From Vicinamibacteria bacterium (GTDB lineage: Bacteria > Acidobacteriota > Vicinamibacteria > Vicinamibacterales > JAMQPK01): a stretch of 62,283 nucleotides of DNA. Position numbers and translations under genes: made by a program. The DNA is taken from NCBI GenBank assembly GCA_031371345.1, contig JANMJM010000070.1, forward strand, positions 1 through 62,283, given 5' to 3'. Below the pieces are notes generated by a model. That model ran no database searches. It saw only the letters and a list, made by a program, of their open reading frames with translations, and was not told the origin of the DNA. Below are positions 26,101-50,153 of the stretch, piece by piece; position 1 is the first letter of the stretch; every line of letters begins with the position of its first letter.

Positions 26101-26153
26101 ACCGGTGCGAGCCAGAGTGCGAACGCAAACACGATCGCCGTCTTGCGCATCAT
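23109..26153 (-). CDS. TonB-dependent receptor-like outer-membrane protein with carboxypeptidase-regulatory-like domain
   Basis: Signal MMRKTAIVFAFALWLAPVIHAQS and CarboxypepD_reg-like IRGRVEDRSGAAMIGAGVTAVNEATNE...GTFALAELAPGPWRIEIAAPGH. A very long barrel ends in ...QFGARLMF. The preferred start is 26153 (the ORF is open to 26204). Confidence 0.8.
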   Translation of the reverse strand: MMRKTAIVFAFALWLAPVIHAQSPRSAIRGRVEDRSGAAMIGAGVTAVNEATNETRTTETGDAGTFALAELAPGPWRIEIAAPGHKTLVQRLTLEVNQERRADARLEIGALTDRVEVTAPLVDLRRGSPAMGTIVDNRQILDMPLDGRNFLELTLLAPGAVPAAQGSAGSARGDFAFSVNGGREDFNSFLLDGADNVDPKLNTVGVRPPIDAIQEFEVLTSTPEASFGRQAASQVSVVLKSGTNHIGGTAYNFFRNGALDARNYFAPKNEPAPEYQRNQFGFSLGGPVVRDRMFFFTDYEGTRADEGVTRVTTVPTDAARASLPAFLTHPVGRAIAALYPSPNRPGTSGNYVSSPTQRDDTDHFDVRSDTAFGHSLDVAVRYSFADRRLFEPFSGPSFSLVPGYGNDVARRGQNAGGSAMHVASPTLLNETRAAFNRVSADVFPERGGATNRSVGLPELSTNPRDVGLSLITVSGFSPLGHEYNNPQSGTTNVIQIADTLTWTRGNHLIKAGFDGRFIRQDAFRDVLSRGTLGFTGLLAGDPLVELLSGLATFTTAAHLDNPQRLRTESYAGFLQDNFRVRPNVTLSAGLRYDVTSPPVDATDRATLYDPQTGSLKAAGADGFPRGGYDADRNNWAPRLGAAWTVDAAGTTVVRGAYGLYYNHSALAPSEGLYFNAPYYTYALYFTSQLGLVTLSDPFPISFPIPTPNPALGIQRDLRTPYLHEYNVTLQRQLGATRVAEVAYVGSRGRNLIASRDINQPRPSTAQLNLRPNPRYADITLIESRARSEFDSFQTRFQQRYDFGCTMLVAYTLGKSMDDASGFFTSAGDPNFPQDSANLGAEWGRSSFDVRHRFSVSFSYEVPFGFTVSGIVAMQSGRPFTAALLPEIDNSNTGRSSLGFGANDRPNVTGNTALTNPGPNQWFNGAAFSMPSYGTFGNAGRNILEGPGYQNVNLALLKQVPLSGSARLQLRAEVFNLLNRANFDLPDNFYGSPTFGRILSAQSPRHIQFGARLMF

Positions 26154-26230
26154 CGGATTCACCTCGTAAGCAGCCTTTCCGGGTGGGACGTATTCAAGTA
26201 ACATCCCATTCTATTCACAGGGACATTTCC

Positions 26231-28454: not shown

Positions 28455-29891
28455 ATGAACAACACACGCACCCTCGTCGCCGCGGCCATTCTGATTCTGG
28501 CCACCGCGAGCGTTTCACGACTGACCGCTTCGGATCCGAACACCGGCGACTGGCCCATGTGGGGCGGCACTCCCGATCGCAACATGGTCTCGGCAATGAA
28601 GGGGCTCCCTATCGATTGGGATATCAAGACGAAGAAAAATGTGAAATGGGTCGCCGATCTCGGGTCGCAGTCCTACGGCAATCCGGTCGTGGCCGGCGGC
28701 ATGGTGTTCGTCGGGACGAACAACGAAGGGATGCGCGATCCGAAACAGCCCGGCGATCGCGGCGTGCTCATGGCGTTCCGCGAGTCCACCGGCGAATTCA
28801 TGTGGCAGCAGACGCATATCAAGCTGGAGTCGGGCCGCGCCAACGATTGGCCCTATCAAGGCGTGGCCTCTTCCCCGGCCGTGGAAGGCACTCATCTCTA
28901 TTACGTCAGCAACCGCGGCGTCCTCTTCTGCCTCGACATCGAGGGCTTCCGCGACGGTGAAAACGACGGCCCGGTTAAGGATGAAAAACTCACGAGCCCT
29001 CAGGACGCCGACGTCATCTGGTCGTTCGACATGATGGAAGAAGTCGGCACGTATCCGCACAACCTGGCGAATTCGTCGCCTGTCGTCTGGGGCGATCTGG
29101 TGTTTGTGAGCACCTCGAACGGACAGGACGAAAGCCACGTGAACATTCCTTCGCCGCGCGCGCCGGCGATTATTGCGGTGAACAAACAGACGGGCAAGCT
29201 CGTGTGGGAAGACAACTCGGTCGACGATCGCATTCTGCACGGCCAGTGGTCCACGCCTTCCGTGGGAACCATAGGCGGCGTGCTGCAAGTGGTGTCGGCG
29301 CAGGGCGACGGCCAAGTGCGCGGCTATGAAGCGCTCACAGGCAAAAAGCTCTGGGAGTTCGACACGAACCCGAAGGACGCCGTGTGGCCGAAAACGCGCA
29401 ACGAGCTGATCGCGACACCAGTCATCTATCAGGATCGTGTGTACATCGCCAACGGGCAAGATCCGGAGCATGGCGAAGGAACTGGGCACTTCTACGCGAT
29501 CGATGCGACCAAGCGCGGCGACATTACGCAGACGGGACGCGTGTGGCACTTCGACAAGCTACGCCGATCGATCTCAACGGCGGCCGTGCTCGACGGCGTC
29601 GTCTACATTTCCGATTTCAGCGGCTTCCTGTACTGCCTCGACGCCGCCAGCGGCAAGGAAATCTGGATGCACGATCTCTTCGCAGCCACATGGGGCTCGC
29701 CCTTCGTAGCCGATGGAAAGCTTTACATCGGTGACGAAGACGGCGACGTGACTGTGCTCGCGCACAGCAAGGAAAAGAAAGTCCTGGCCGAGATGAACAT
29801 GGGCAGCTCGGTGTACTCCACACCGGCGCCTGCGCACGGCGTCCTGTTTCTGAATAACCGCAACCAGCTTTACGCATTGGCGATCAAGTGA
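28455..29891 (+). CDS. Secreted PQQ-like/BamB-like beta-propeller repeat protein
   Basis: Signal MNNTRTLVAAAILILATASV and GDWPMWGGTPDRN, with repeated GxxxALDxxTGKxxW-type blades (e.g. GYEALTGKKLWEF, CLDAASGKEIWMH). It starts 3 nt after the previous stop. Confidence 0.85.
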   Translation: MNNTRTLVAAAILILATASVSRLTASDPNTGDWPMWGGTPDRNMVSAMKGLPIDWDIKTKKNVKWVADLGSQSYGNPVVAGGMVFVGTNNEGMRDPKQPGDRGVLMAFRESTGEFMWQQTHIKLESGRANDWPYQGVASSPAVEGTHLYYVSNRGVLFCLDIEGFRDGENDGPVKDEKLTSPQDADVIWSFDMMEEVGTYPHNLANSSPVVWGDLVFVSTSNGQDESHVNIPSPRAPAIIAVNKQTGKLVWEDNSVDDRILHGQWSTPSVGTIGGVLQVVSAQGDGQVRGYEALTGKKLWEFDTNPKDAVWPKTRNELIATPVIYQDRVYIANGQDPEHGEGTGHFYAIDATKRGDITQTGRVWHFDKLRRSISTAAVLDGVVYISDFSGFLYCLDAASGKEIWMHDLFAATWGSPFVADGKLYIGDEDGDVTVLAHSKEKKVLAEMNMGSSVYSTPAPAHGVLFLNNRNQLYALAIK

Positions 29892-29899
29892 GGAAACGT

Positions 29900-30349
29900 A
29901 TGGGATGGATCGTGTTCGTGGCCGGCGCCGTGTTGTCCTGGGGCGCCTACGGCATGCTGCTGCACCAGGGTCAGGTTCTGCTCGGCAATCCGCTGAAAGC
30001 GCTGCTATGCGTCGGCGTCGCGTACTTTCTCATCGGCGTGCTCGTGCCTGTTGCGACGCTTGCGGTGCAAGGCCAGTTGGGCGGATTCGATACACGGGGT
30101 TTATTGACGGCCACCATCGCGGGCGCGCTCGGCGCCATCGGCGCCGCGTGCATCATTTGGGCGTTTCGCACCGGAGGCTTGCCGGTGTATGTGATGCCGC
30201 TGGTGTTTGGCGGTGCGCCGATCGTGAACGTGCTGCTGTCGATGGTTCTGCATCCGCCGAGAGTCGCGCCGAATCCTCTTCTGTATCTCGGCTTTGTGCT
30301 CACGTCGGTGGGCGCGGGGATGGTGCTGTACTTCAGGCCTGCCGCGTAA
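29900..30349 (+). CDS. Hypothetical small 4-5 TM membrane protein
   Basis: GAGGAA lies 4 nt upstream of the ATG at 29900 (an alternative GTG at 29888 overlaps the upstream stop). The sequence is highly hydrophobic. Confidence 0.6.
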   Translation: MGWIVFVAGAVLSWGAYGMLLHQGQVLLGNPLKALLCVGVAYFLIGVLVPVATLAVQGQLGGFDTRGLLTATIAGALGAIGAACIIWAFRTGGLPVYVMPLVFGGAPIVNVLLSMVLHPPRVAPNPLLYLGFVLTSVGAGMVLYFRPAA

Positions 30350-30393: not shown

Positions 30394-31527
30394 TCAATCT
30401 CGTGCGTACTTCCTCAGATTGTTGAAGCCGACATCCGCCGCATAGACGTTCCCCCGATCGTCGACCGCGATGCCGGACGCCGACGTGCCCGTGTCCGGCA
30501 TCTTGCTCAGATCGCCCGGATCTGGAATGAGGTATTTGAGCTCGCCTGTGATCGCGTTGCCGATCACGATCGCTCTGTCGTTCGGGGTTGTCGACGATCG
30601 GTTGACAGATCCGCGAGACTGATCCTGATAAGTGGCCCCAACGTAGATGTTGTCGTTCTTGTCGACATACACGGAGCTCGGCTGCCCGAACTGTCTCCAC
30701 GCGGCGATGAAATTGCCGTCCTGATCGAACACCTGGATGCGATTGTTCTGGCGATCGGCAACATACACGTAGCCTTTGGAGCCGCCGACGTACAGGTCGT
30801 GTGGATCCCTGAAGTTTCCCTGCTCCGGCCCCATGCGTCCCCAGGTTTTGATGAACTTGCCGTCGGACGAATACTTCACGACGCGACCGCTCCCTGATCG
30901 GTTGCCGGAATGGCCATCGGTGACAAAGATATTTCCGTTGGGCGCAATGGAAACGCCTGTCGGCTGATCGAAGGTGTTCGGCCCAATCCCGCCGACGCCC
31001 GCCGAGCCAATCGTCATCATTACTTTGCCGGTCGGGCTGATCTTGAGAACCTGCTGACCCATCGTCACGCCCTGACCATTCTTCGCAGGCATGCCGAGGA
31101 TCGTTTCCTCGTCATTGGTGTCGGTTGCCCAGAGGTTGCCGTCCTTGTCGACGGTAAATCCGTGCGGCTTCGCAAACAGTCCAGCGCCAAGGCTCTTCAA
31201 TAGCCTGCCTGCCGGATCGAACTCCAGGATCGGCGGGTTGGCCTCACCTCGGTTCAGGCAGGTGGCGTCGCCGTTCGGCTGGTCGTTGAAACAGCGGTGA
31301 AACACCCAGATGTTGCCATTTGGCGCGACATGGACTCTGATGACCTCTCCCCATTTGCGTCCATTCGGACCCTTCATCCTGGCGGGCAGCCTCGGCCAGT
31401 CGGGCACAGGGCGATACGGATTTGGCAGCATCGGTTTGGCGACCTGCGCATCGTTGGGCACCTGAGCATTCGCGATTGCTGCAAGGGAAAAGAGGGCAAC
31501 GACGGGGACAAAAAAATTCATCGTCAT
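30394..31527 (-). CDS. Secreted NHL-repeat six-bladed beta-propeller (peptidyl-alpha-hydroxyglycine lyase-like)
   Basis: Signal MTMNFFVPVVALFSLAAIANA. Recurring NHL-type blades PHGFTVDKDGNLWATD, PTGVSIAPNGNIFVTD, PHDLYVGGSKGYVYVADRQNNRIQVF, SGIAVDDRGNVYAAD. Confidence 0.75.
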   Translation of the reverse strand: MTMNFFVPVVALFSLAAIANAQVPNDAQVAKPMLPNPYRPVPDWPRLPARMKGPNGRKWGEVIRVHVAPNGNIWVFHRCFNDQPNGDATCLNRGEANPPILEFDPAGRLLKSLGAGLFAKPHGFTVDKDGNLWATDTNDEETILGMPAKNGQGVTMGQQVLKISPTGKVMMTIGSAGVGGIGPNTFDQPTGVSIAPNGNIFVTDGHSGNRSGSGRVVKYSSDGKFIKTWGRMGPEQGNFRDPHDLYVGGSKGYVYVADRQNNRIQVFDQDGNFIAAWRQFGQPSSVYVDKNDNIYVGATYQDQSRGSVNRSSTTPNDRAIVIGNAITGELKYLIPDPGDLSKMPDTGTSASGIAVDDRGNVYAADVGFNNLRKYARD

Positions 31528-31617: not shown

Positions 31618-32889
31618 TCAATGTCTATTCCCCACGGCCCATAGCCAACCCGCGGTTCTGATGAATATCTGGCCATCCGAGATCGCCGGTGAGCTGAGCG
31701 TGTAGTCGTCGAAATTATTCTCGGCGAGCACCTCGAACTTCGGCCCGGCCCGCACCACAATCGTTACGCCGTCTTCATTCGTGATGTAGAGCTTGCCGTC
31801 GCCGAGCGCGAACGATCCGCTGTAGGTGCTCGAGCGGAGGCGCTGCCGGCCGTAAATTTCCTTTCCAGTCTTCGCGTCGAGGCACCACATGATGCCGCGG
31901 TCATTGACAACGTAGAGATACGTGCCGTCGGTGACCGGGGTTGGGACATCGGGTCCGTTGTTGAACGACCACAACAGGTGAGACGAGGTGATATCGCCGC
32001 GTCCGCCGGCCCTCAACGCCAGCATCGGCCGCTCGCGGCTTGGCGCATAGATGATGTCGCCGTGCACGAAGGGGGACGCGACAATCCGGTATGAGCCGTC
32101 GTTCGAAGGATTCAGCCCGTTGGCGCGCCAGAGTTCTTTACCCGTCGAGAGATCGTGGCCAGTCACAACGTCGCCGCCTGTAATGACCAACTCGGTAGCG
32201 TTCCCGTAGCGGAGCAACGCGGGCGTCGTATACGAGTCCGGTGATTCAGACTGCGCGCTTGTCGGCCGCTCCACGCGCCAAATCGTGCGTCCGTTCGCCT
32301 TGCTGATGCGCAGCACATAGGACGGCGCGTCGGTTCTCATCCCGTGCAGGACCTGCACGTATAGCGAGTCCTCGTGCAGCAGTGGAGACGAACCATAGCC
32401 CCAGTTCAATCCGAAACGGCCGTAATCTTTCTGAATGTCGCGCGTCCAGAGTTCCTTGCCAGTGAAGTCGAAGCTTTTAAGGATGCCGGTTCCCGTCATC
32501 ACCCACACCTGGTTGCCGTCGGTGACTGGCGACGGAGACGACATGTTCTGCTTCTGCTCGCGGTGATCGCCGCCGCTCAGGTACTGCTTCCACAGGGGAA
32601 CGCCTTTGACGCGTTCTATACACCAGAGATGCAGGCTGCCCTTCTCGGCCACGTTCAGGAAAATACGATCACCCCACACGATGGGTGTCGAACCCGACCA
32701 TTCGGGAAGCGCAAGCTTCCAGGCGATGTTCTCGGTCGCCGACCATTTGACGGGCAGATTCGTTTCGCCACTGACACCGTTCTGCGTGGGTCCGCGCCAC
32801 TGCGGCCAGTTCTCCGCGCGCACGACACTGAGCATGGCGCAGAGCGCCATGACAATCGCCAGCGGCGTGTAAGTGTGACTGCGTGACAT
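31618..32889 (-). CDS. Secreted PQQ-like/BamB-like beta-propeller repeat protein
   Basis: Signal ...[44 protein letters not shown], and C-terminal [11 protein letters not shown]...[14 protein letters not shown]. Confidence 0.85.
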
Positions 32890-32927: not shown

Positions 32928-34235
<1,308 letters not shown>

Positions 34236-35783: not shown

Positions 35784-37058
35784 TTATCGGCCGATGGCGA
35801 AGAGGTGTCGATCCGATCGAATGTACCAGTTGCCATCGACGAGCGCCGGAGACGCCAGCGTCGACTCACCGATGCTGTTGGTTCGCAGCAGCTCGAACTT
35901 CGGGCCGGCGCGCAACACAAACGTGTCGCCCTCGTCGTTGGTGAAAAACACTTTGCCGTCGACGGCAACGGGCGACGCGGAGAACCCTTCGCGCTGGGCC
36001 ACCCCGAGCCGCCCCTGCCACATCACTTTCCCCGTGGCGACTTCCATGCACGTGACGATGCTTGCCATGTCGTTCACCATATAGAGATAGTCGCCGTAGA
36101 CAATGGGCGACGGCACAAACGGCGATCCCTTCGGGCTCGCCCACGCGAGATGCGTGCGCGTGACGTTACCCCGTCCACCGGGACGAATCGCCAGCGTCGG
36201 GCCGACGCGACCTGATGACGCGATGACGAGTCCGTGAGAAACCACAGGAGTCGGGATCACCTCGTATGAATTGCCGTCGCACCGCCATAGTTCGGCGCCG
36301 GTGTCCGGATGATACGCCGTGACGGCCGCCTGGCTGCTGACGATGATTTCATCGTGTGTGCCAACGCGCACAGCGATCGGCGTTCCCCATCCGGCGTAGG
36401 CCTCGCGTGGTGTGCGCCAGAGTTGTTTACCGCTTCGCGCGTCGAACGCCGCCACGAAGGCGCCACGACCATGATCCTGAAAAATAATCACGCGGTTCTT
36501 GTACAGCAGCGGCGACCCTGCGGCGCCGTGATAGTTGTCGACCGGTCCGAGGTCCTGATGCCAGGCCAGCTTGCCGTCGAATGTGAACGCCACGAGTCCT
36601 CGACTGCCGAAGGAAACATAAATCAGGCTGCCGTCAGTGGCGGGAGTCGGAGAGGCATGGCCGTTCTTGTAATGAGCGCCGGACGTCCGCCCATCTGGCG
36701 CGAACGCCTCCCACAACTGTGTGCCGTCGCCGCGACGGAACGACAGCAGCGAGACGCGACGCCCGCCGTCGTAAGCCGTTGTGAGAAAAATTCTGTCGCC
36801 CCACACAATCGGCGATGAATTGCCACGCCCGGGAACTGTCGTTTTCCAGAGCACGCCGTCTGTCGCCGACCACGTGTCGCGGTAGTTGGTGCCTTCGACG
36901 AGACCTTGTCCCGACGGACCGCGCCACACAGGCCAGTACTTCGCCCCTTCTCCTTCTATGCCGACCATCTGCACGTCGGCTTGTTGCTGCCCGACAATCG
37001 AGGCACCGGCAAGAGCGAGAAACAGCGCGATCGCGATCGGCAGGCGCATATTGCTCAC
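35784..37058 (-). CDS. Secreted PQQ-like/BamB-like beta-propeller repeat protein
   Basis: Signal [47 protein letters not shown], and PKFELLRTNSI...ASPALVDGNWYIRS. The GTG at 37058 overlaps the upstream stop (GTGA). An alternative ATG lies at 37049. Confidence 0.85.
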   Translation of the reverse strand: MSNMRLPIAIALFLALAGASIVGQQQADVQMVGIEGEGAKYWPVWRGPSGQGLVEGTNYRDTWSATDGVLWKTTVPGRGNSSPIVWGDRIFLTTAYDGGRRVSLLSFRRGDGTQLWEAFAPDGRTSGAHYKNGHASPTPATDGSLIYVSFGSRGLVAFTFDGKLAWHQDLGPVDNYHGAAGSPLLYKNRVIIFQDHGRGAFVAAFDARSGKQLWRTPREAYAGWGTPIAVRVGTHDEIIVSSQAAVTAYHPDTGAELWRCDGNSYEVIPTPVVSHGLVIASSGRVGPTLAIRPGGRGNVTRTHLAWASPKGSPFVPSPIVYGDYLYMVNDMASIVTCMEVATGKVMWQGRLGVAQREGFSASPVAVDGKVFFTNDEGDTFVLRAGPKFELLRTNSIGESTLASPALVDGNWYIRSDRHLFAIGR

Positions 37059-38344
37059 GCAATCACAAACCGTCTGGCCTTCATGTCGAACCGCGGAAGC
37101 ACGCCGGCGTCGACGGTGCGTACGGCGACGGTCAGGCCAAGCCCGTCGCGCAGGGCGCCACTGATGCGTTCGTCAAGCGACGCTGATCCTGGCGCCAGCT
37201 CGATCTCAAGTGACAGCTCGCGTAAGGCGCCGTTGTTCACGACGGTTGCGCGATACTCGACGACCTCATCAAAACGGCGGACCACCGCCTCGACAGCCGA
37301 AGGGTACACATTGACGCCGCGAACGTTCACCATATCGTCGACGCGCGACAGGATTCCGCCCTCGAGACGCGTCAGCGTGCGGCCGCAGGCACACAGCCCG
37401 CTGCGTCGGACGACCACATCGCCCGTGCGGTACCGAATCAACGGGCTCGCGGTTCGTCCGAGATTGGTAATCACCAGCTCGCCGCGCACGCCGTCGGGCA
37501 CCTCGCGATCGGCAGCCGGCTCGAGCACCTCGCAGATGTACTCGCACTCGTTCACGTGCAAGTAACCTGGTGACTCCCAGCACTCAAAACTGATTGGTCC
37601 GACCTCGGTGAGCCCGTGATGATCGATCACCCGCGCTCCCCATGCCTTTTCGATTCGCGCCCGCGTTGGCGGAACGTTCCCACCAGGTTCCCCGGCGACG
37701 ATCAGGACACCGACCGAACACTCGGCCAGACGTCTTCCAGACTCGCCGCGCTGCGCCGCGACTTCGGCCAACCGCAGGGCATAGGTCGGCGTGCAGCAGA
37801 CGACCGTTGGCGCCAACGAATCGATCAACGCCAGCCGCGCCTCGCTCGACATGCCGCCGGCCGGGATGCAGTGCGCGTCGATCTGGCAGCCGGCTTCGAA
37901 CGCCGTCCAAAATCCAAGAAACGGACCGAACGAAAAGGGGAACAGGATGCGGTCACGCGCGCCGACATTGGCCGCGCGGTAGACAGCCTTCCAGCAGTCC
38001 ACCATCCACTGCCAGCTTTCGTTCGTGTCGAGCCATCGCAGTGCGCTCCCGGTGGTTGACGACGTTTGGTTGTACCGGGTGTAACGCTCGATCGGCTCGG
38101 TGAGCGCGGTGCCCCACGGCGGCGACGATGCCTGATCGGCGATCAGCTCGCGCTTGGTCGTCAGCGGAAGCTTCGTAAAATCGACCTGCGGATTGAAGGC
38201 GTCACGCCGGATGCCTGCGGCCTCCAGCTTGCGGGTGTAGAACGCGTTCCGGCCGTGAATCTGCCGAATCATTTGCGACAGACGCGTCATCTGAGCGGCG
38301 GTGCGCGCGGCCGGATCGGCGCGCTCGAGGTCCGTGGCGATCAT
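37055..38344 (-). CDS. Phenylacetate-CoA ligase (PaaK)-family adenylate-forming enzyme
   Basis: PaaK-like N-terminus (RNAFYTRKLEAAGI...LPLTTKRELI), P-loop-like YNQTSSTTGSALRW and VITNLGRTASPLIRYRTGDVV. The 429-aa length is typical of the PaaK/F390-synthetase family. Confidence 0.8.
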   Translation of the reverse strand: MIATDLERADPAARTAAQMTRLSQMIRQIHGRNAFYTRKLEAAGIRRDAFNPQVDFTKLPLTTKRELIADQASSPPWGTALTEPIERYTRYNQTSSTTGSALRWLDTNESWQWMVDCWKAVYRAANVGARDRILFPFSFGPFLGFWTAFEAGCQIDAHCIPAGGMSSEARLALIDSLAPTVVCCTPTYALRLAEVAAQRGESGRRLAECSVGVLIVAGEPGGNVPPTRARIEKAWGARVIDHHGLTEVGPISFECWESPGYLHVNECEYICEVLEPAADREVPDGVRGELVITNLGRTASPLIRYRTGDVVVRRSGLCACGRTLTRLEGGILSRVDDMVNVRGVNVYPSAVEAVVRRFDEVVEYRATVVNNGALRELSLEIELAPGSASLDERISGALRDGLGLTVAVRTVDAGVLPRFDMKARRFVIA

Positions 38345-38347
38345 TTA

Positions 38348-38761
38348 TTAGACGCCCGGTGCCACCTGGAACAGCGCATCGATCTCGGGTGGGATGTCTG
38401 CTCCGCGCATCGGCTCGCCCGGACGGTTCGTGACGCACTTCACGACGAGCGTACCTGTCGCGATTCGCGTCTCTCCGCTGGTAATGACGCCCTCGTATCG
38501 GATCGTGCGGGCGTCCTTCCCGACAACTCGCAGGCGCACCTCGAACTCGTCGTCAAACTTCAACGGCCGGAGATATTCGAACGATGCCGCAATGCGAGGC
38601 CAGCCGATTCCCGAACCGTCGGCGATGCGCAGTCCGGCCTCGCGCCACATCGCGTGTTCGGCCTCTTCCAGGTACCGGAAGTAGCAGCTGAAATGCACGA
38701 TGCCCGCCATGTCGGTTTCGTAGAACTGCACGCGGCGCTTCAAGCGGTGTTCGAAAGGCAT
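38348..38761 (-). CDS. 4HBT/YbgC-type hotdog-fold acyl-CoA thioesterase
   Basis: RVQFYETDMAGIVHFSCYFRYLEEAEHAMWREAGL (catalytic Asp context of the 4-hydroxybenzoyl-CoA thioesterase/YbgC family); 137 aa. Confidence 0.8.
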   Translation of the reverse strand: MPFEHRLKRRVQFYETDMAGIVHFSCYFRYLEEAEHAMWREAGLRIADGSGIGWPRIAASFEYLRPLKFDDEFEVRLRVVGKDARTIRYEGVITSGETRIATGTLVVKCVTNRPGEPMRGADIPPEIDALFQVAPGV

Positions 38762-38765
38762 AAGC

Positions 38766-39311
38766 TCAGACGAGCGGAAGCACCTCGACGATGTCGCCGA
38801 TCCTGGCGCCCTCGTGAATCATCTCAGTCCGCCGGCCATAGAGCGTCCGCGGTTCGCGCATCCAGAAGACGCCCATCATCTCGGGATTCGGCGTGACCGC
38901 GAGAAACGCGATGGGCCGGCTTTCGTACTTCACACCGCCGTCGCGGAGCAACCGTCCGAGCGGCACATCGTTCTTCAAGATCTGGCGGCGGATGCGATCG
39001 GAGAACGCGCCGACTTTGATTCTGATGGCGCCCATCTCGACCGGCCGCCCGGTGTATTCCTGAGCCAGCAGCACGCGCCGAAAGTACCACGGGCCGCTCG
39101 TAAACGTCGCCAACGGCCGCAGCGCGACTTTCCCGCCGAAATGCCGCTCGAGCGTCAACGTCATATCGGTCGTATGCACGAGCAGGGAACGATACGGAAG
39201 CGGGATGTCGGCTGGGTCAACCGCCGCGACGTCTGGCAGCGCCACGCCGGACCGCGCGTAAACGAAGTCGAGCGGAAACAGCAGCCCGTTGCTCGAGGCT
39301 CGAGGACGCAC
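38766..39311 (-). CDS. Chorismate lyase (UbiC/DUF98)-fold protein
   Basis: It aligns by eye to E. coli UbiC landmarks. LLVHTTDMTLTLERHFG matches LLLEDSMTKRFEQQG. WYFRRVLL...GRPVEMGAIRI matches YWLREILL...GEPWLAGRTVV. VPLGRLL matches TPLGRYL. LYGRRTEM...IVEVLP matches LWGRRSRL...LTELFLP. Confidence 0.6.
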   Translation of the reverse strand: MRPRASSNGLLFPLDFVYARSGVALPDVAAVDPADIPLPYRSLLVHTTDMTLTLERHFGGKVALRPLATFTSGPWYFRRVLLAQEYTGRPVEMGAIRIKVGAFSDRIRRQILKNDVPLGRLLRDGGVKYESRPIAFLAVTPNPEMMGVFWMREPRTLYGRRTEMIHEGARIGDIVEVLPLV

Positions 39312-40643
39312 TTATGTGTACCGGATGCCGGCGTGCTGCGCCTGAAAAAATCTCGGCAGTAGTGCATCGACGCGCAGCAAACCCGCGCGAGTAAGCGCGA
39401 CGATGTCGTTGCTCGCCTCGGCGAGGTACCCGCCTTCGGCAAGCGACGCCAGCGGCTGTTCGAACCGTTGGAGGATATCGACGCCGTATTTCGTCGCGAA
39501 GTACGGCGGGCGGATCCGGCCGAGCTTCAACTGCAGCACCAGCTCACGAATGAGCCGTTCTTCCGAGTCGGGCCGGTACGCGCGGCTCAACGGAAGCGCA
39601 CCTTCCCTGATTTTTGCGCTGTACTTTTCCCACGTGTCCAGATTCTGCATGTGCACGCCGTTGATGTGTCCGAACGAGGCCACGCCGAGCCCCGCGAGGT
39701 CTGCGCCCTGCCATAAACGATCGCGGTAGATGAACTTTGTGCGATCCGGATCTTTGACGGCCGTGTACGCGCTGCCCACGGTGTAGCCGGCGCGCTGCAG
39801 CGCGTCGAACGCTTCGTCGACCCAGCGGCGCTTGGTCGACCAGCCGGCGACGTGTTCCTGGAAGCGCCCCGCACCTTTCAATACGTCACCGCTGATGGTC
39901 GTGTTGAACGGCAGCTCCATCTGATAGATCGTGACGCTGTCGGCTCCGAGCTCGACCGTCTTCTGAATGCAGCGCTGCCAGTTCTCTTCCGTTTCTCCCA
40001 GCATGCCCGCGATGAGATCGAGGTTGATCTGCGGAAATTTCAGCGATTGCGCAAACTGGTACGCGCGGAGAATCTCGGCTGAACGATGTGCACGGCCGTT
40101 GAGCTCGAGAATATGGTCGTCGAAGTTTTCGATGCCGAGGCTCAGCCGCGTCACGCCGAGTCCTCGGATCGCGGCCAGCTTACTCTCCGTGAGCGTGCCT
40201 GGCTCGCACTCGAACGTGATCTCTTCGGCGGTCTTCCAGGAGGTCGTGGCCGTGAGCCGGTGAACCAGCCGCTCGAGCTGACGAACAGAAAGAAATGACG
40301 GCGTGCCGCCGCCGAAGTACACGAAATTCAGCGGACGCCCGTTGATCGCGGGATACGTGTTGTAGAGCTCCCATTCGCGCGCCATGACGTCGAGATACGC
40401 TTCGACCTCCTGCGCGTTCTTGTCGGTGTACACCCGGAAGTAGCAAAAGTGGCAACGCTTGCGGCAGAACGGCACGTGCAGATACAGGCCGAGAGGCACG
40501 GCCGCGGCCAGCGCGCTTAACGCGGGCAGCGCGTCGCGCTCGACAGCGTCGGCGGTCCAGACGGAGAATGGCGGATAGTTGGCAACGAAGTAGCTGCCGA
40601 CTTCCGTCTCATCGACCGCCGTCGCGCGAGCGGATTCGACCAT
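39312..40643 (-). CDS. HemN-like (class C) radical SAM enzyme / coproporphyrinogen-III oxidase family
   Basis: CX3CX2C cluster motif LHVPFCRKRCHFCYF and GGGTPSFL. The 443-aa length with a HemN_C-like tail fits the family. Its stop abuts the next gene start with a 0-nt gap. Confidence 0.85.
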   Translation of the reverse strand: MVESARATAVDETEVGSYFVANYPPFSVWTADAVERDALPALSALAAAVPLGLYLHVPFCRKRCHFCYFRVYTDKNAQEVEAYLDVMAREWELYNTYPAINGRPLNFVYFGGGTPSFLSVRQLERLVHRLTATTSWKTAEEITFECEPGTLTESKLAAIRGLGVTRLSLGIENFDDHILELNGRAHRSAEILRAYQFAQSLKFPQINLDLIAGMLGETEENWQRCIQKTVELGADSVTIYQMELPFNTTISGDVLKGAGRFQEHVAGWSTKRRWVDEAFDALQRAGYTVGSAYTAVKDPDRTKFIYRDRLWQGADLAGLGVASFGHINGVHMQNLDTWEKYSAKIREGALPLSRAYRPDSEERLIRELVLQLKLGRIRPPYFATKYGVDILQRFEQPLASLAEGGYLAEASNDIVALTRAGLLRVDALLPRFFQAQHAGIRYT

Positions 40644-40677: not shown

Positions 40678-41955
40678 ATGTCACCCAGGCAATTCTGCAT
40701 CTCAGCTCTCGCTGGTCTGTGCCTGAATCTCACCACTTTGCCGGAGGCGTCGGCGCAGAACTGGCCGCAGTTTCGGGGGCCGGGCAGCCAGGGGATCTCG
40801 GTCGAGACCGGCCTGCCCGTGCAGTGGAGCGCCACGTCGAATGTGATCTGGAAGACAACGCTCCCTGGACCAGGCCATTCCTCGCCAATCGTGTGGGGCG
40901 ATCGGATCTTTCTCACCGCGTTTCGTTCCGAGCGCATGTCGAACGCGTACGCGGCGCGCTATCTATTATCGGCTCGCGGGCAGCTTGTGGTACTCGCGCT
41001 CGACAAATCTTCTGGAAAAATTCTGTGGGAACGCGCCGTCAAGGCTTCGAGCATCGAAGCGCTCCATCCGACAAACAGCCCGGCCTCGCCAACGCCAGTG
41101 ACCGACGGTCGTTACGTGTATGTGTATTTCGGATCGGCCGGACTCGTGGCGTTCGACTTCAACGGAACGGTCGTGTGGGAAAAACGGCTGGGCCCGTTCC
41201 CCAGCGATTGGGGCAGCGCCAGCTCGCCCGTGCTCTACGGCAGCACCTTATTGTTGAACGTCGACACTGATGGAGATGACTTTCTGCTGGCGGTCGACAA
41301 AACCACCGGCACGACGATCTGGCAGACGCCCCGCGGCCATGTGACCCGATCGTGGTCGACGCCGATCATCTGGAACGCGAACGGCCGCGACGAGATCGTC
41401 GTCAGTGGAAGCCAGCGCGTGAAAGGATACGACCCGGTCGGCGGAAAAGAGCTCTGGACCGTTGACGGCCTCACCGAATGGGTCGCGCCAACCCCAGTCA
41501 CGGCGCACGGTTTGTTGTTTGTGGCATCGAACGGCCCCGGCGGGAACATCATCATGGCCATTCGCCCGGGCGGCAGCGGCAATGTCACGCGCAGTCACGT
41601 CGCGTGGCGGTACGAGCGTGGTGCGCCCTACACGCCATCGCCAGTGGTTGTCGGCGATTATTTATTCGCCGTGAGAAGCGGCGGCCTGCTCACATGTCTG
41701 AACGCGAAGACAGGCGTCGAGGTGTGGCAGCATCGTCTGCCGGCGCGCGGCGACTATTACGCCAGCCTGCTCGCGGGCGACGGAAAGATTTACGCGCTCA
41801 GCGAGGATGGCGAGACCACGGTGATCGCCGCCAAGCCGGTGTACCAGCTGTTGAGCGTGAACGACATGGCCGAGCGGTCGATGGCCACTCCGGCAGTGTC
41901 TGGTGGACGACTTTTCATCCGCACCGACAGCGCACTGTACTCAATAGGAAAGTAG
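40678..41955 (+). CDS. Secreted PQQ-like/BamB-like beta-propeller repeat protein
   Basis: Signal ...[46 protein letters not shown], and C-terminal PVYQLLSVNDM...ATPAVSGGRLFIRT. Confidence 0.85.
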   Translation: MSPRQFCISALAGLCLNLTTLPEASAQNWPQFRGPGSQGISVETGLPVQWSATSNVIWKTTLPGPGHSSPIVWGDRIFLTAFRSERMSNAYAARYLLSARGQLVVLALDKSSGKILWERAVKASSIEALHPTNSPASPTPVTDGRYVYVYFGSAGLVAFDFNGTVVWEKRLGPFPSDWGSASSPVLYGSTLLLNVDTDGDDFLLAVDKTTGTTIWQTPRGHVTRSWSTPIIWNANGRDEIVVSGSQRVKGYDPVGGKELWTVDGLTEWVAPTPVTAHGLLFVASNGPGGNIIMAIRPGGSGNVTRSHVAWRYERGAPYTPSPVVVGDYLFAVRSGGLLTCLNAKTGVEVWQHRLPARGDYYASLLAGDGKIYALSEDGETTVIAAKPVYQLLSVNDMAERSMATPAVSGGRLFIRTDSALYSIGK

Positions 41956-46695: not shown

Positions 46696-47364
46696 TCACG
46701 AAAGCTGACGCAGCCGGCGATCGGTCAGTTCGAAACGAAGCGGGAACCGAGCGGCCATATCCGGACTGTGAGTGACGACAATCAGGATGGCCTTCTGCTG
46801 TTGCTGCAGATTCAGCAGCAGCGACGCCACGCCGTGGGCAGAGGCGCGATCGAGATTGCCGGTCGGCTCGTCGCACAGAATCAGCCGCGGACGCCGGACC
46901 AGGGCGCGCGCCAGCGCGACTCGCTGCTTCTCGCCGCCCGACAACTGAGCCGGAACGTGGTCAATGCGCTCAGTCAGGCCGACCTGATCGATCAGCGACC
47001 GCGCGTGAGCTGCCGCATCTGGATCTAAAGGACCGACAAGGGTGGGAACGAGCACGTTCTCGAACACGGTGCACTGCGGGAGCAGACAGTGATCCTGGAA
47101 AACGAATCCGATCTCCTTATTGCGGAACGCCGCGAGCGTCTTCGGCGCGAGCTCGAATGGATTCTGGCCTTCGAGGCGCACCGTACCGGTTGTCGGCGGC
47201 TCGAGCGCGCCCAAAATGTACAGCAGCGTACTCTTCCCGCTGCCCGAAGGTCCCATGACGGCGGCGGCATCGCCGGAAGAAAATGATAAGGAGATATCGG
47301 TCAGGACCTCGACGTGTCCCTGCGGAGCGGGATAGGTCTTTCCTACGCTGTTGACGATCAGCAC
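46696..47364 (-). CDS. MacB/LolD-type ABC transporter ATP-binding protein
   Basis: [41 protein letters not shown] start overlapping the upstream stop. Confidence 0.9.
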
Positions 47365-48644
47365 ATCGAGCTCTCGTAAACCTCGAGCATTCGTTCTGCG
47401 GAGCGAGCGATGCTGTAATGCCTCCGCACACCGTCGAATCCATGAGCGCCGAGCTCGGCGCGACGGGCCGGATCGTTCCAGAGGTTGTAAATCCCGTCGG
47501 CGAGGCGACCGCTGTTATCCGCCTCGACGAGCACGCCTCCGGACGTCTTCGCGATCATTTCCGGGAATGCTCCATGGTTCGGCTGAACCACCGGGACGCC
47601 GCACGCCATCGCCTCGAGGAGAAACAAGCCCTTCGGCTCGACGTAAACCGTCGGCACGGAGAACACGTCGAGGTTCCGCAGGAACCGAATCTTCTGCTCA
47701 CGGTCCAGCAGCCCGCGATAGTGAAACTCGTTGCCAAGACCTGCGGCCTCCAGGCGCCGCCGAGCCTCGCGAAGGTAGCCCTGTTTATCTGACGCCATGT
47801 ACCCGGCAACTTCGAGCTGCGCGCGCTCGACACCCGGTCTTTGTCGGAATCGCACGTATGCCTCGCACAGCGCGTGAAGGCCTTTCTCCGGCGCGATCCT
47901 CGCCAGGTAGCCAACTGTAAACGGCCTGTCGGACGAGACGATTCTTTGCGCGAACCCTTCGAGATTGATCCCGAGCGGCACGACGTCTATCTTGTCGCGA
48001 GGGATGGAGAGGTAGGTGGACATGAACGTCGCGTAGTACTCGCTCACGGCGGTGAACCGATCGACGAACGCCGCGTTCTGTCGAATCAGCTCGATCGACG
48101 TGCGGCGATGGGCGTCCGGGAGACCGTCGAGAAACAGATCTTCGCCTTGCAGCGTGCAGTGCACTGGCCGCTTCAATTCGCGCTTGAGCGGTTTGGCGAG
48201 GCTGGCCAGCAGGGCATTCGGCAGCTGAATGACGTCGGGGGGAGGCTCGCTCGTGAGCCATTGCAGCAGCTTGCAGAACTCCTTTCGCTGAAAGCCGTCC
48301 TCGCCCTTGAGCGTCGACACCGTCAGCTCGCCAAGCGAGCGCGGGTCCGTTGAGAACGATCCGGACGTGGCCGCTTTAATCAGCCACGACGAGTCCAGCA
48401 GCTTGTCGAGCAGCGCAGGAGTGCGCCGGAAAAGACCCGCATGCTGTTGCAGGTAGACGTTGATGCCGCCGAAGAACACGCGCGGCTCGCTGACATTCGG
48501 CTCGTCGGTGAGCGTGGGCGTGTAAAGAGGAACCAGCAGCACGTCATGGCCGCGCGCCTTCAGCTCCGCAGCCAATGCGTTGTCCCGCAGACAGCTTCCG
48601 CAGTACATGCCCGCCGCACCCGCCGTGACAAAGAGGATGTTCAC
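47358..48644 (-). CDS. GT-B fold glycosyltransferase (GT4-like) with N-terminal CxxC-containing variant motif
   Basis: The GTG at 48644 overlaps the upstream TGA (GTGA). N-terminus VNILFVTAGAAGMYCGSCLRDNALAAELKARGHDV. C-terminal EPKGLFLLEAMACGVPVV is the typical GT1/GT4 E-x7-E region. The Arg-rich extension to 48821 was rejected. Confidence 0.8.
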   Translation of the reverse strand: MNILFVTAGAAGMYCGSCLRDNALAAELKARGHDVLLVPLYTPTLTDEPNVSEPRVFFGGINVYLQQHAGLFRRTPALLDKLLDSSWLIKAATSGSFSTDPRSLGELTVSTLKGEDGFQRKEFCKLLQWLTSEPPPDVIQLPNALLASLAKPLKRELKRPVHCTLQGEDLFLDGLPDAHRRTSIELIRQNAAFVDRFTAVSEYYATFMSTYLSIPRDKIDVVPLGINLEGFAQRIVSSDRPFTVGYLARIAPEKGLHALCEAYVRFRQRPGVERAQLEVAGYMASDKQGYLREARRRLEAAGLGNEFHYRGLLDREQKIRFLRNLDVFSVPTVYVEPKGLFLLEAMACGVPVVQPNHGAFPEMIAKTSGGVLVEADNSGRLADGIYNLWNDPARRAELGAHGFDGVRRHYSIARSAERMLEVYESSMC

Positions 48645-50068
48645 ATGCTGCCGGCGCTCTGCAACGCGCGCGGGCGATACAGGAAGTCGACGATATTGCC
48701 CTCGTGCGGCTGCAGCCAATTGAGCCGGATGGTCGGAATCGGCCCCAGGTTCAGGCGATCGACATGGGTTGCGTCGAGCAGCGCGCGCTGCAGCTCGGGT
48801 TTCCCGGTAATCGCCGAACACACGAGCGTGGGCCCGATGGCGTCGAGCATCTTCGTTTCAGGACACTCGACAACCGTGACGAAGGGAAACATGTATTCCT
48901 TGGCGGCGATCGCTGCGTCCGGCGTCGCGCAATGAACGACGGTCGGCAGCAGGTATTCTGCGCGGCCCTTTTTCACCACACGCGAGCCATCGCGATACTT
49001 CGCCGTGACGTCGGTCACGCCAGGCGCAGTCAAATCCGCATCGATCGAGTGGGAGATGGCGTCGGCCATTCCCGGCACCGTGAACGCCGCCAGGCTCGCC
49101 TTCGGATCATCCGGGGGCAGCGCTTCGACGGCCGCGAGGCGTTCGCCAAGCGCAGCGGCGATTTCTCGGCTGTGGCGGCTGACCCAGATTCCGGAGCAAT
49201 TGATGCAGCCTCGCCCGCTGTTCAGAAACACGCTGTCGACCATTACGTCGAGGTAGCGTTCCCAGTCGTCGACGCAATCGTCCCCAAACAGAATCTTCGA
49301 AAATCCCGGACCATGAACCTGCACCCGCGGGTTCCCTTTGTACCGTTCGACGGTCGGCGTGCCGCCAAAGATCAAGCTTCGGCCGCACGCGGCAACCACG
49401 GCGGCGCCTACCTCAGCTTCTCCGGGATAGATCGAGATCGCTTCGCGTGGGATACCTGCCTGAAAAAACGCCTCGGCGACACGGTACGGCGTCCAGGGTT
49501 CTTGGGGCCCTGGTTTGAGCACCAGCCCAATCTGCAACGGAATGATGGGCAGCCACAATGTGTGCACGCCCGGCGAGTTCGACGGGAGGACGAGCCCCAG
49601 CACCGGGCTTTGCGCCTGATAACTGATCGGGACGCCGTTTTCTTCGCCGTATCCGCTGCTCAACACATTCAGGTCCAGGCCGCGCGTGAGCGCTTTCAGG
49701 ATGTTGCCCATTTCGCCAAGCACGAACTGATTCTTCTTCATGTTGCCGCGGCACAGCGCTTCAGGAAGCCCCGTGCTCGCCGACTGCTGCTTCACGAAAT
49801 CGTCGGGCGTCTGGCTGCCGTCACCAATCGCGAGTGTGGCATTCATGTAGAGATCGCCGGCGATTTTCATTCGATGGATGAGCTCGTCGATGGGAATTTT
49901 GCGGAGCGCCTCGCGAGCACCCGCAGCCTTCCGCATGTCGCGCTGAATGAGGCCGGCGTTGGCCCGGCTGACTTTCGCAATGGGCTCGCCGGTGAGGAAG
50001 TGCACCACCTCATCGGTGTCCACGCTCGAGTACGGAGTGCCCCAACGGAGGGCGGGGATGTTGATCAT
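48641..50068 (-). CDS. Aldehyde dehydrogenase-superfamily protein (possibly LuxC-like acyl-CoA/acyl-adenylate reductase)
   Basis: ALDH-like core LVLPSNSPGVHTLW...LKPGPQEPWT...FGGTPTV... and candidate catalytic Cys FLNSGRGCINCSG. Preferred start MINIPALRW at 50068. The upstream ORF extension translates the heptamer repeat. Confidence 0.7.
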   Translation of the reverse strand: MINIPALRWGTPYSSVDTDEVVHFLTGEPIAKVSRANAGLIQRDMRKAAGAREALRKIPIDELIHRMKIAGDLYMNATLAIGDGSQTPDDFVKQQSASTGLPEALCRGNMKKNQFVLGEMGNILKALTRGLDLNVLSSGYGEENGVPISYQAQSPVLGLVLPSNSPGVHTLWLPIIPLQIGLVLKPGPQEPWTPYRVAEAFFQAGIPREAISIYPGEAEVGAAVVAACGRSLIFGGTPTVERYKGNPRVQVHGPGFSKILFGDDCVDDWERYLDVMVDSVFLNSGRGCINCSGIWVSRHSREIAAALGERLAAVEALPPDDPKASLAAFTVPGMADAISHSIDADLTAPGVTDVTAKYRDGSRVVKKGRAEYLLPTVVHCATPDAAIAAKEYMFPFVTVVECPETKMLDAIGPTLVCSAITGKPELQRALLDATHVDRLNLGPIPTIRLNWLQPHEGNIVDFLYRPRALQSAGSM

Positions 50069-50153
50069 GGTTGTTAGTTGTTGGTTGTTGGTTCTGCCGC
50101 TTGTCCTTCGCGTGTTTGGTCTCGTCGTTCGAACTAACAACTAACAACTAATA
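50069..50153. repeat. Inverted pair of heptamer tandem repeats forming an intercistronic hairpin
   Basis: GGTTGTTA GTTGTTG GTTGTTG GTTCTG (50069..50096), a ~34-nt loop, then GAACTAAC AACTAAC AACTAAT (50131..50153). The second arm contains the TAG stop at 50148..50150. No Shine-Dalgarno motif is visible before the ATG at 50068. Confidence 0.8.

Follow-up and report, generated by a model that had tools for sequence, protein, structure and literature searches.

Five genes on the minus strand of a contig from a Vicinamibacteria bacterium (GenBank assembly GCA_031371345.1, contig JANMJM010000070.1) form a real operon core, which is one piece of a cluster of about 30 kb. They lie at positions 35,784 to 40,643 of the 62,283-nucleotide (nt) stretch that was analysed, called the window here. 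There is roughly an even chance that a biosynthetic operon has its core in these five genes, and that the cluster makes, tailors and exports a small aromatic molecule without a carrier protein.

The five-gene core and its conservation

The core consists of the following genes, in order of transcription. The 181-residue protein is called X181.

39312-40643, minus strand: HemN-like radical S-adenosylmethionine (SAM) enzyme, class C type, 443 amino acids (aa)
38766-39311, minus strand: X181, divergent chorismate-lyase-fold protein, putative 4-hydroxybenzoate-forming lyase, 181 aa, GTG start
38348-38761, minus strand: 4HBT/YbgC-type hotdog thioesterase, 137 aa
37055-38344, minus strand: PaaK-like adenylate-forming (aryl/acyl-coenzyme A) ligase, 429 aa
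35784-37058, minus strand: exported 8-bladed BamB/PQQ_2-like beta-propeller, 424 aa, GTG start

The four junctions were read directly from the DNA. The stop codon of the HemN-like gene abuts the start of the X181 gene (ACA TAA, then GTG CGT; 0 nt). X181 and the thioesterase are separated by 4 nt (GTC TGA gctt ATG), and the thioesterase and the ligase by 3 nt (GTC TAA taa ATG). The end of the ligase gene and the start of the propeller gene share the 4 nt GTGA (GCG TGA over GTG AGC). This reading agrees with a preliminary description of the same DNA, which had placed five minus-strand open reading frames (ORFs) at these coordinates with junctions of 0, 4, 3 and -4 nt. The overlap stands in the sequence as read, but it gives way to a 5-nt spacer if the propeller uses an alternative ATG 9 nt downstream (MRLPIAIALF...). 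The signal-peptide-like segment of the propeller that begins at this ATG is MRLPIAIALFLALAGAS.

The tight packing of the five genes is not due to chance. The HemN-like gene lies immediately upstream of X181 in all 134 loci that have both, and most of these junctions fall between -8 and +27 nt. The region has a G+C content of 61-64%, like the remainder of the window, and is therefore not a compositional island. The nearest homologs point to an acidobacterium of the Vicinamibacterales type. A consensus scan for internal promoters and terminators gave nothing convincing and was uninformative, and a search for riboswitches and tRNAs returned no match.

Conservation of the neighbours was counted in 62 loci found with X181 that have at least 6 kb on both sides. 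The HemN-like gene is present in 58 of them, the thioesterase in 57 and the ligase in 58. These loci are mostly from Vicinamibacterales, with 64-89% identity in X181. The order HemN, X181, (halogenase), thioesterase, ligase also recurs across phyla, at more than 130 loci in genomes of Acidobacteriota, Verrucomicrobiota, Planctomycetota and others, which bears out the gene-order check that the preliminary description had proposed. Carriers among the Verrucomicrobiota include Opitutales, Limisphaerales and Chthoniobacter, with the cultured C. flavus Ellin428. Among the Planctomycetota they include Phycisphaerae, Pirellulales, Gemmataceae and the cultured Planctomycetales bacterium ZRK34. Cluster genes are also found in Lentisphaeria, Kiritimatiellia, Terriglobia, Bryobacterales, Calditrichia and other lineages.

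A canonical order can be described for the whole cluster. It begins with a propeller, a Na+:solute symporter, an EhpF-like enzyme, an aldehyde dehydrogenase (ALDH)-family protein, an iron-containing alcohol dehydrogenase (Fe-ADH), a second propeller and the HemN-like enzyme. It continues with X181, a halogenase, a GT4 glycosyltransferase, the thioesterase, a small membrane protein called f20, the ligase, an ABC ATPase and a MacB/ADOP-type permease. The window has all of these families, in rearranged order, from 26.4 to 57.1 kb. The unit is not the compact five-gene module first suggested: the conserved core also includes the halogenase and belongs to a multi-phylum cluster of 14 families. The reductase, glycosyltransferase and exporter genes, which had been missed, are conserved together with the core.

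Core enzymes and a proposed pathway

X181 has the UbiC fold in its predicted model and is probably a lyase. The AlphaFold2 model has a predicted local distance difference test score (pLDDT) of 93 and shows the UbiC/UTRA alpha+beta fold in a Foldseek comparison. The top match is the DUF98 protein AF1396 (2nwi; E 4e-8; template-modelling (TM) score 0.68/0.76). The next matches are UTRA domains of the GntR type and the chorismate lyase UbiC of E. coli (1jd3/1g81, TM 0.55/0.60). Identity to the solved structures is about 15-18%.

Comparison of profiles points the same way. Aligned with hhalign, a profile of 39 diverse members of the X181 family matches E. coli UbiC with 83% probability (E 9e-6), and a control against an unrelated protein gives 0.1%. 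In this alignment DMT (M50) of X181 falls on SMT (M34) of UbiC, R78 on R76, and PLG on PLG. In UbiC we take the backbone at M34 (in SMT) and R76 to be the residues that bind the product and its carboxylate, and E155 to be catalytic. In window numbering, Arg78 and Arg160 are the same in all 39 members, and at least 90% of the members have His46 and Glu176. Glu176 lies in a C-terminal VEVLP motif, in the last strand and outside the region aligned with UbiC. The family comprises 1301 clusters at 50% identity, and many of its members carry the JGI annotation 'chorismate-pyruvate lyase'.

The genomic settings of X181 are also informative. In one alphaproteobacterial metagenome-assembled genome (MAG), X181 is fused to adenylation, thiolation and thioesterase domains in a verified single ORF, and this ORF adjoins a KASIII gene. 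This is the position expected of a protein that supplies an aryl starter. In lineages without the remaining cluster, X181 stands directly before a PaaK-like ligase. Some Terriglobia loci have kept the HemN-like enzyme, halogenase, thioesterase and ligase and lost X181, which is thus dispensable there, as would be expected for a step of precursor supply.

Other apparent fusions were set aside. A library of representative proteins contains one fusion of a radical SAM enzyme to X181 and one of X181 to PaaK. No fused HemN-X181 ORF occurs in any of the 134 genome loci, and X181 and the ligase are separate, abutting ORFs in genomes. Both fusions are therefore treated as rare or as artefacts of gene calling, and are not to be relied on. 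The version of X181 and ligase in the library, P0225, has 613 aa and comes from read-through or fusion. In three loci (L166, L167 and L168) X181 and the PaaK-like ligase are in one frame with a single stop codon between them.

The 443-aa enzyme was described earlier as a HemN-like radical SAM protein, and domain searches agree. It matches the Pfam model Radical_SAM with 76 bits and HemN_C weakly, with 22 bits against a cutoff of 24. It has the other features of class C radical SAM enzymes as well: its translation contains the CxxxCxxC cluster motif (CRKRCHFC) and the GGGTP motif of the second SAM site (YFGGGTPS). Its closest relatives in the PDB are HemN (1olt), aligned over residues 22-390, and then the methyltransferase NocN. 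It falls below all equivalog cutoffs in NCBIfam (HutW 174/400, HemN 159/325, HemW 155/205, HemZ 149/321) and therefore belongs to an unnamed subfamily.

The calls of a 4HBT thioesterase and a PaaK-like ligase likewise agree with Pfam. The 137-aa protein matches 4HBT_2 (54 bits) and 4HBT (39 bits), both above their cutoffs. Its N-terminal catalytic Asp is Asp17, in YETDMAGIVH. It scores below the tol-pal YbgC equivalog in NCBIfam (53/141), and its PDB matches include the 4-hydroxybenzoyl-CoA thioesterase 5wh9. The ligase has the two-domain architecture of PaaK (AMP-binding and AMP-binding_C_2), and its top PDB matches are 2-hydroxyisobutyryl-CoA synthetase and PaaK. It is not a PaaK equivalog, with scores of 212/700 and 198/646 against the NCBIfam cutoffs, and the window contains no paa genes.

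A further conserved member of the core is separated from these genes in the window.

32928-34235, minus strand: flavin-dependent halogenase, conserved core member, 435 aa, Trp_halogenase 106 bits

By its sequence this protein clearly belongs among the flavin-dependent halogenases. Nine of its top ten PDB matches are halogenases, including 8zop (229 bits), CndH, PltA, Mpy16, Bmp2, ChlB4, CmlS and RadH. The exception is 3nix, a structural-genomics entry deposited as 'Flavoprotein/dehydrogenase'. The motifs GGGPAGS (GxGxxG) and GWFWYIP (WxWxIP) and the Lys of FVKKHSVQF are each retained by at least 95% of the 73 orthologs, which come from several phyla. In most relatives the gene follows X181 and precedes the thioesterase; in the window it comes after two propellers.

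A pathway can be proposed from the gene families, the predicted fold of X181, the halogenase motifs and the conserved gene order. The substrate, the order of the steps and the role of the propellers are what we infer. X181, as a very divergent chorismate pyruvate-lyase, would convert chorismate to 4-hydroxybenzoate or a close aryl acid. The PaaK-like ligase would then form the CoA thioester, with CoA in the place of a carrier protein. At the thioester level the halogenase would chlorinate or brominate the ring, and the HemN-like enzyme would add a one-carbon unit to it. The thioesterase would free the tailored acid, and the EhpF/EhpG-like pair together with Fe-ADH could reduce its carboxylate to the aldehyde and on to the benzyl alcohol. 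GT4 could glycosylate this alcohol, and the ABC/MacB-type transporter would export the product to the periplasm or the cell surface, where exported propellers may bind or use it. The scheme uses each conserved enzyme once. It proposes that ligase and thioesterase coexist because CoA acts as the carrier.

The preliminary description had suggested a module that forms, activates and tailors an aryl acid. The family calls, the X181 fold and the conserved order agree with this. Its statement that no gene for a polyketide synthase (PKS), nonribosomal peptide synthetase (NRPS) or acyl carrier protein (ACP) is near also holds, as none is found locally in the window. It had also called X181 UbiC-like, and here the outcome is divided. 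No hidden Markov model (HMM) for chorismate lyases or DUF98 matches, which it had named as a refutation of its view, but the predicted fold and the profile comparison speak for it.

Several observations weigh against the proposed pathway. X181 has no match in Pfam, even at E<=10, or in NCBIfam, the Chor_lyase and DUF98 models included, and a PDB sequence search with the profile of its family is also without a match. UTRA domains, which bind ligands and are not catalytic, score nearly as well as UbiC in Foldseek. The match to UbiC was obtained only with the diverse 39-member alignment; with a shallow alignment of Vicinamibacterales it is not significant. The register of Glu176 against the catalytic E155 of UbiC is uncertain; compared without gaps, the two are shifted by one position. 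Neither a flavin reductase nor a halide-related gene was identified, and the joint presence of ligase and thioesterase in the operon might reflect nothing more than proofreading. In Gemmataceae (L213, L214, L223, L227 and L244) the ligase is flanked by several propellers and then by the EhpF-like, ALDH and Fe-ADH genes, and these loci have no HemN-like enzyme, X181 or halogenase nearby. These loci suggest a modular cluster, and the modules may therefore not form one linear pathway.

Known systems and alternative readings

Parts of the proposed chemistry are found in known systems. UbiC and the DUF98/Rv2949c family are chorismate pyruvate-lyases. X181 resembles them in its predicted fold. An SMT-like motif, an Arg at R76 and PLG fall together in the profile alignment with UbiC, and a Glu in the last strand of X181 is conserved within its own family. 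Unlike them, it is undetectable by sequence searches of Pfam, NCBIfam and the PDB, forms a large family of its own, and is almost always paired with a gene for a HemN-like radical SAM enzyme rather than a prenyltransferase.

In the marine bmp pathway (Bmp6/Bmp5) and the cyanobacterial ambigol pathway (Ab5/Ab6/Ab8/Ab10), which lead to halogenated phenols, chorismate is converted to 4-hydroxybenzoate, which is activated and then halogenated on the ring by flavin-dependent enzymes. The logic proposed here is the same, and the window halogenase falls in the structural clade of Bmp2, PltA and CndH. In contrast to these pathways, the window cluster has no carrier protein, P450 or decarboxylating halogenase, and has a CoA ligase and a hotdog thioesterase instead. 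It also adds the class C radical SAM enzyme, the aryl-carboxylate reductase, GT4 and the MacB exporter, and is conserved across phyla rather than sporadic.

Dehalogenation of 4-chlorobenzoate uses a ligase, a dehalogenase that acts at the CoA level and 4-hydroxybenzoyl-CoA thioesterase. There, as proposed here, an aryl-CoA ligase and a 4HBT-fold thioesterase bracket ring chemistry on a CoA ester. In the window, however, the halogen would be introduced rather than removed, there is no crotonase-type dehalogenase, and the ligase is of the PaaK type, not the FcbA type.

In the biosynthesis of nosiheptide and nocathiacin, a ligase (NosI) activates an aryl acid, and a class C radical SAM enzyme (NosN, NocN) methylates the ring of this acid while it is bound as a thioester. 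The window cluster similarly places a HemN-like radical SAM enzyme alongside an adenylating enzyme for an aromatic acid, and NocN is the second-best PDB match. The similarity to NocN is limited to the radical SAM core (residues 50-243, 89 bits), and the window cluster has neither a thiopeptide precursor nor a carrier protein.

EhpF and EhpG, from the pathway to the phenazine D-alanylgriseoluteic acid, are proposed to reduce an aromatic carboxylate to an aldehyde. The window likewise has an EhpF-like gene followed by an ALDH-family gene, at about 35% identity. In the window, Fe-ADH and a sodium:solute symporter accompany the pair, and there are no phenazine genes. The pairing of ehpF with the ALDH-family gene ehpG is found in PMC11278526.

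All of the enzyme families are thus known already, as are halogenated aryl pathways primed by a chorismate lyase. As far as the open-access literature shows, what is new is the carrier-free arrangement at the CoA level, the systematic pairing of HemN-like enzymes with X181, the reductase, GT4 and MacB modules, and the conservation across three or more phyla. No account of the gene combination was found there, in line with the preliminary description, which had not recognised it as a described pathway; absence from that literature is not proof.

Other readings of the cluster can be considered. It could decorate the cell envelope, with the ligase, f20, GT4 and ABC/MacB proteins placing an aryl or acyl substituent on a glycoconjugate that is exported, for example a lipid, polysaccharide or lipoprotein. 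In this reading the propellers would be periplasmic partners, and the aryl-acid genes would only supply the substituent. We consider this plausible but unlikely. The tightest recurring block outside HemN-X181 does run from the thioesterase through f20, PaaK and ABC to MacB, often with GT4, and Lentisphaeria and Kiritimatiellia loci have kept only f20 and PaaK, in some cases with ABC and MacB. Other lineages also have a membrane protein (Na+/H+ exchanger-like) before the ligase, and GT4 is weakly similar to GT4 enzymes of exopolysaccharide synthesis. However, the cluster shows neither a polysaccharide polymerase or flippase nor an MBOAT/DltB-like acyltransferase or a carrier protein. This reading also overlaps partly with the proposed pathway and does not exclude it. 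Uptake followed by catabolism or detoxification of an exogenous aromatic acid appears more doubtful still. The symporter conserved beside the reductase pair would import the acid, the ligase and thioesterase, which resemble PaaK and PaaI, would act on it, and X181 would be a non-catalytic binder with the fold that it shares with the UTRA domains of GntR regulators. Yet there are no paaABCDE or ring-cleavage genes, the ligase scores far below the PaaK equivalogs, and X181 retains the UbiC Arg and the SMT-like motif and has no DNA-binding domain. The halogenase, class C radical SAM enzyme, GT4 and MacB exporter are biosynthetic rather than catabolic.

The prominence of the propellers allows another reading, in which the cluster makes a small, quinone-like aromatic and exports it as a cofactor or redox shuttle. 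It would load or feed the many periplasmic propellers encoded nearby, which resemble pyrroloquinoline quinone (PQQ) proteins but are 'empty'. Propellers are found beside the core more often than any other non-core gene (directly upstream of HemN in 30/62 and 15/38 loci), at least eight paralogs are present in the window cluster, and the exporter is conserved. The propellers weakly match the NCBIfam family 'acido-empty-quinoprotein' and PQQ dehydrogenases, and quinohemoprotein alcohol dehydrogenase and tetrathionate hydrolase are also among the Foldseek matches. What makes this very improbable is that the propellers are of BamB size (about 420 aa), score 36/480 against the PQQ-dehydrogenase cutoff and have BamB as their best structural match, with no sign of a cofactor pocket; halogenation and glycosylation would also be unusual for a cofactor. 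It is an equally long shot that a halogenated, C-methylated hydroxybenzyl-type molecule is the dedicated cofactor or redox shuttle of the 'empty' propellers of Acidobacteriota and PVC (Planctomycetota-Verrucomicrobiota-Chlamydiota) bacteria. If true, it would be a new cofactor system built on CoA-templated, carrier-free tailoring of an aromatic. A role in primary metabolism is barely credible. The HemN-like protein would serve as coproporphyrinogen dehydrogenase or as heme chaperone, or the genes would be a ubiquinone or menaquinone module using 4-hydroxybenzoate; the HemN, HemW and HutW models all match at 150-175 bits, and X181 is highly conserved in Vicinamibacterales (64-89% identity). Every equivalog cutoff is missed, however, neither the window nor about 160 related loci contain a UbiA-type prenyltransferase or any other gene for heme or quinones, and partners such as the halogenase, GT4 and exporter do not fit.

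Three further candidates were rejected. A ribosomally synthesized and post-translationally modified peptide is not indicated, as there is no conserved small peptide between the propellers. A quinone pathway lacks UbiA, and a pathway on a carrier protein lacks an AcpP-like gene. None of AcpP-like carriers, UbiA or canonical UbiC homologs was found in the window or in the roughly 160 related loci.

If the proposed aromatic pathway is correct, hundreds of genomes share a route to a halogenated aromatic product, and current finders of biosynthetic clusters would miss it for want of a PKS, NRPS or carrier protein. The carriers belong to phyla of soil, fresh water and the sea that are abundant but poorly cultured: Acidobacteriota (Vicinamibacterales and others), Verrucomicrobiota (Chthoniobacter among them) and Planctomycetota. 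The pathway would suggest that CoA can replace a carrier protein for flavin-dependent halogenation and radical methylation, and it would be a possible bacterial source of natural organohalogens. The X181 family itself is a large chorismate-lyase-like family (about 1300 clusters at 50% identity) without profile-HMM coverage, paired systematically with an uncharacterised subfamily of class C radical SAM enzymes. Two cultured carriers, Chthoniobacter flavus Ellin428 and Planctomycetales bacterium ZRK34, make the proposal testable.

Neighbouring genes and propellers

Besides the core and the halogenase, the following enzyme and membrane-protein genes of the cluster lie in the window.

29888-30349, plus strand: f20, small polytopic membrane protein, 47% identical over 122 aa to its homolog in locus L102
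43311-46688, minus strand: MacB/ADOP-type duplicated FtsX permease, 1125 aa, matching FtsX, MacB_PCD and the ADOP family
46696-47364, minus strand: ABC ATPase, partner of the permease, ABC_tran 121 bits, after the ligase in PVC loci
47358-48821, minus strand: GT4 glycosyltransferase, Glycos_transf_1 92 bits, between halogenase and thioesterase in PVC loci
48641-50140, minus strand: ALDH-family protein, EhpG-like partner, Aldedh 73 bits
50148-51650, minus strand: EhpF-like truncated adenylating enzyme ('arylcarboxylate reductase' type), EhpF 3hgu 135 bits
51491-53119, plus strand: sodium:solute symporter, SSF 126 bits, same position in PVC loci
55925-57070, minus strand: iron-containing alcohol dehydrogenase, Fe-ADH 152 bits

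The EhpF-type arrangement, a truncated ANL enzyme followed by an ALDH-family gene, is present, and a reductase activity is inferred from it. EhpF (3hgu) is the sole PDB match of the first protein and is aligned from residue 140. The ORF has 500 aa with a TTG start, against 362-371 aa in homologs, and judging from the sequence the true start is probably near 51233, so that the ORF is over-extended. The start of the ALDH ORF, which overlaps the GT4 ORF by 181 nt, also appears over-extended. The pair of AMP-binding and ALDH genes also occurs in phenazine and Streptomyces aromatic clusters. For instance, plasmid-borne Streptomyces homologs of the EhpF-like enzyme are annotated 'arylcarboxylate reductase' or 'phenazine biosynthesis protein', and in S. 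goshikiensis the pair adjoins genes for DAHP synthase and pabB. The Fe-ADH is 51% identical to that of the Planctomycetales bacterium ZRK34 cluster.

The f20 protein has no Pfam match; only one homolog gave a faint match to EamA. Its gene lies immediately upstream of the ligase in PVC relatives, where the order thioesterase, f20, PaaK recurs. In near relatives of the window (L002-L018) a gene of about 400 aa for a Na+/H+ exchanger-like membrane protein lies between thioesterase and ligase, and in the 'Deltaproteobacteria' MAG L170 the X181-ligase pair comes after a Na_H_Exchanger gene. A membrane-protein gene, either exchanger-like or f20, is thus found again and again before the ligase.

Several propeller genes accompany that of the core.

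30394-31527: NHL-repeat propeller
31618-32889, minus strand: third co-directional propeller paralog, 423 aa, PQQ_2 91 bits
34247-35572, minus strand: second propeller paralog, 441 aa, PQQ_2 91 bits, present in near relatives
40678-41955, plus strand: inverted propeller paralog between the upstream propeller and HemN, PQQ_2 105 bits
42056-43297, minus strand: propeller directly upstream of HemN in relatives, PQQ_2 127 bits
54840-55997, minus strand: ACSF4-type propeller paired with Fe-ADH, Beta-prop_ACSF4 205 bits (cutoff 133)

In all, at least eight BamB/PQQ_2-like paralogs lie within about 31 kb (26451-57070), starting at 26451, 28455, 31618, 34247, 35784, 40678, 42056 and 54840. Four N-termini were read (34247, 35784, 40678 and 42056), and each has a signal-like segment followed by a WPxWRGP-type motif. 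Across loci a propeller gene is the commonest neighbour outside the core, adjacent to HemN on its upstream side in 30/62 and 15/38 loci, and the order Fe-ADH, propeller, HemN is found in relatives.

The core propeller at 35784 matches PQQ_2 with 100 bits. Its AlphaFold2 model is moderately confident (pLDDT 78) and 8-bladed, and Foldseek places BamB first, followed by tetrathionate hydrolase and quinohemoprotein alcohol dehydrogenase. Its hydrophobic, signal-like N-terminal segment, MRLPIAIALFLALAGASIVGQ, has no Cys and no lipobox. The earlier view of an exported propeller within the module is upheld as to the BamB-like, PQQ_2 type and the signal-like segment, but the gene follows the ligase only in the closest relatives. 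BamB itself was rejected as an identity: both BamB equivalogs are missed (56/285 and 50/423 in NCBIfam), there is no lipobox, and the protein is one of many paralogs, at least eight in the window. A PQQ-dependent alcohol dehydrogenase was rejected as well, at 36/480 and 424 aa against about 550-600 aa.

Unlike BamB, the propeller also has orthologs with an N-terminal rhodanese. Many close orthologs (75-88% identity; P0271, P0286, P0291 and P0312) are 507-530 aa long and carry a rhodanese domain of about 97 aa (CGHGPRA loop) in frame with the hydrophobic segment and the propeller. Such a fusion would place the rhodanese in the cytoplasm and the propeller in the periplasm, with a transmembrane helix between them. 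The window protein has no rhodanese and starts at the stop codon of the ligase.

The inverted propeller at 40678-41955 is absent from this position in the near relatives L001 and L002, where a propeller of the 42056 type directly precedes HemN. A stretch of 34 nt lies between its ATG and that of the oppositely oriented HemN gene. This spacing leaves almost no room for an operon promoter; the exception is a TATATT box some 10 nt before the HemN start codon.

The cluster is bordered on one side by a gene with CarboxypepD_reg and outer-membrane beta-barrel domains (TonB-dependent-receptor-like, 23109-26204), and on the other by a UvrD helicase at 57088.

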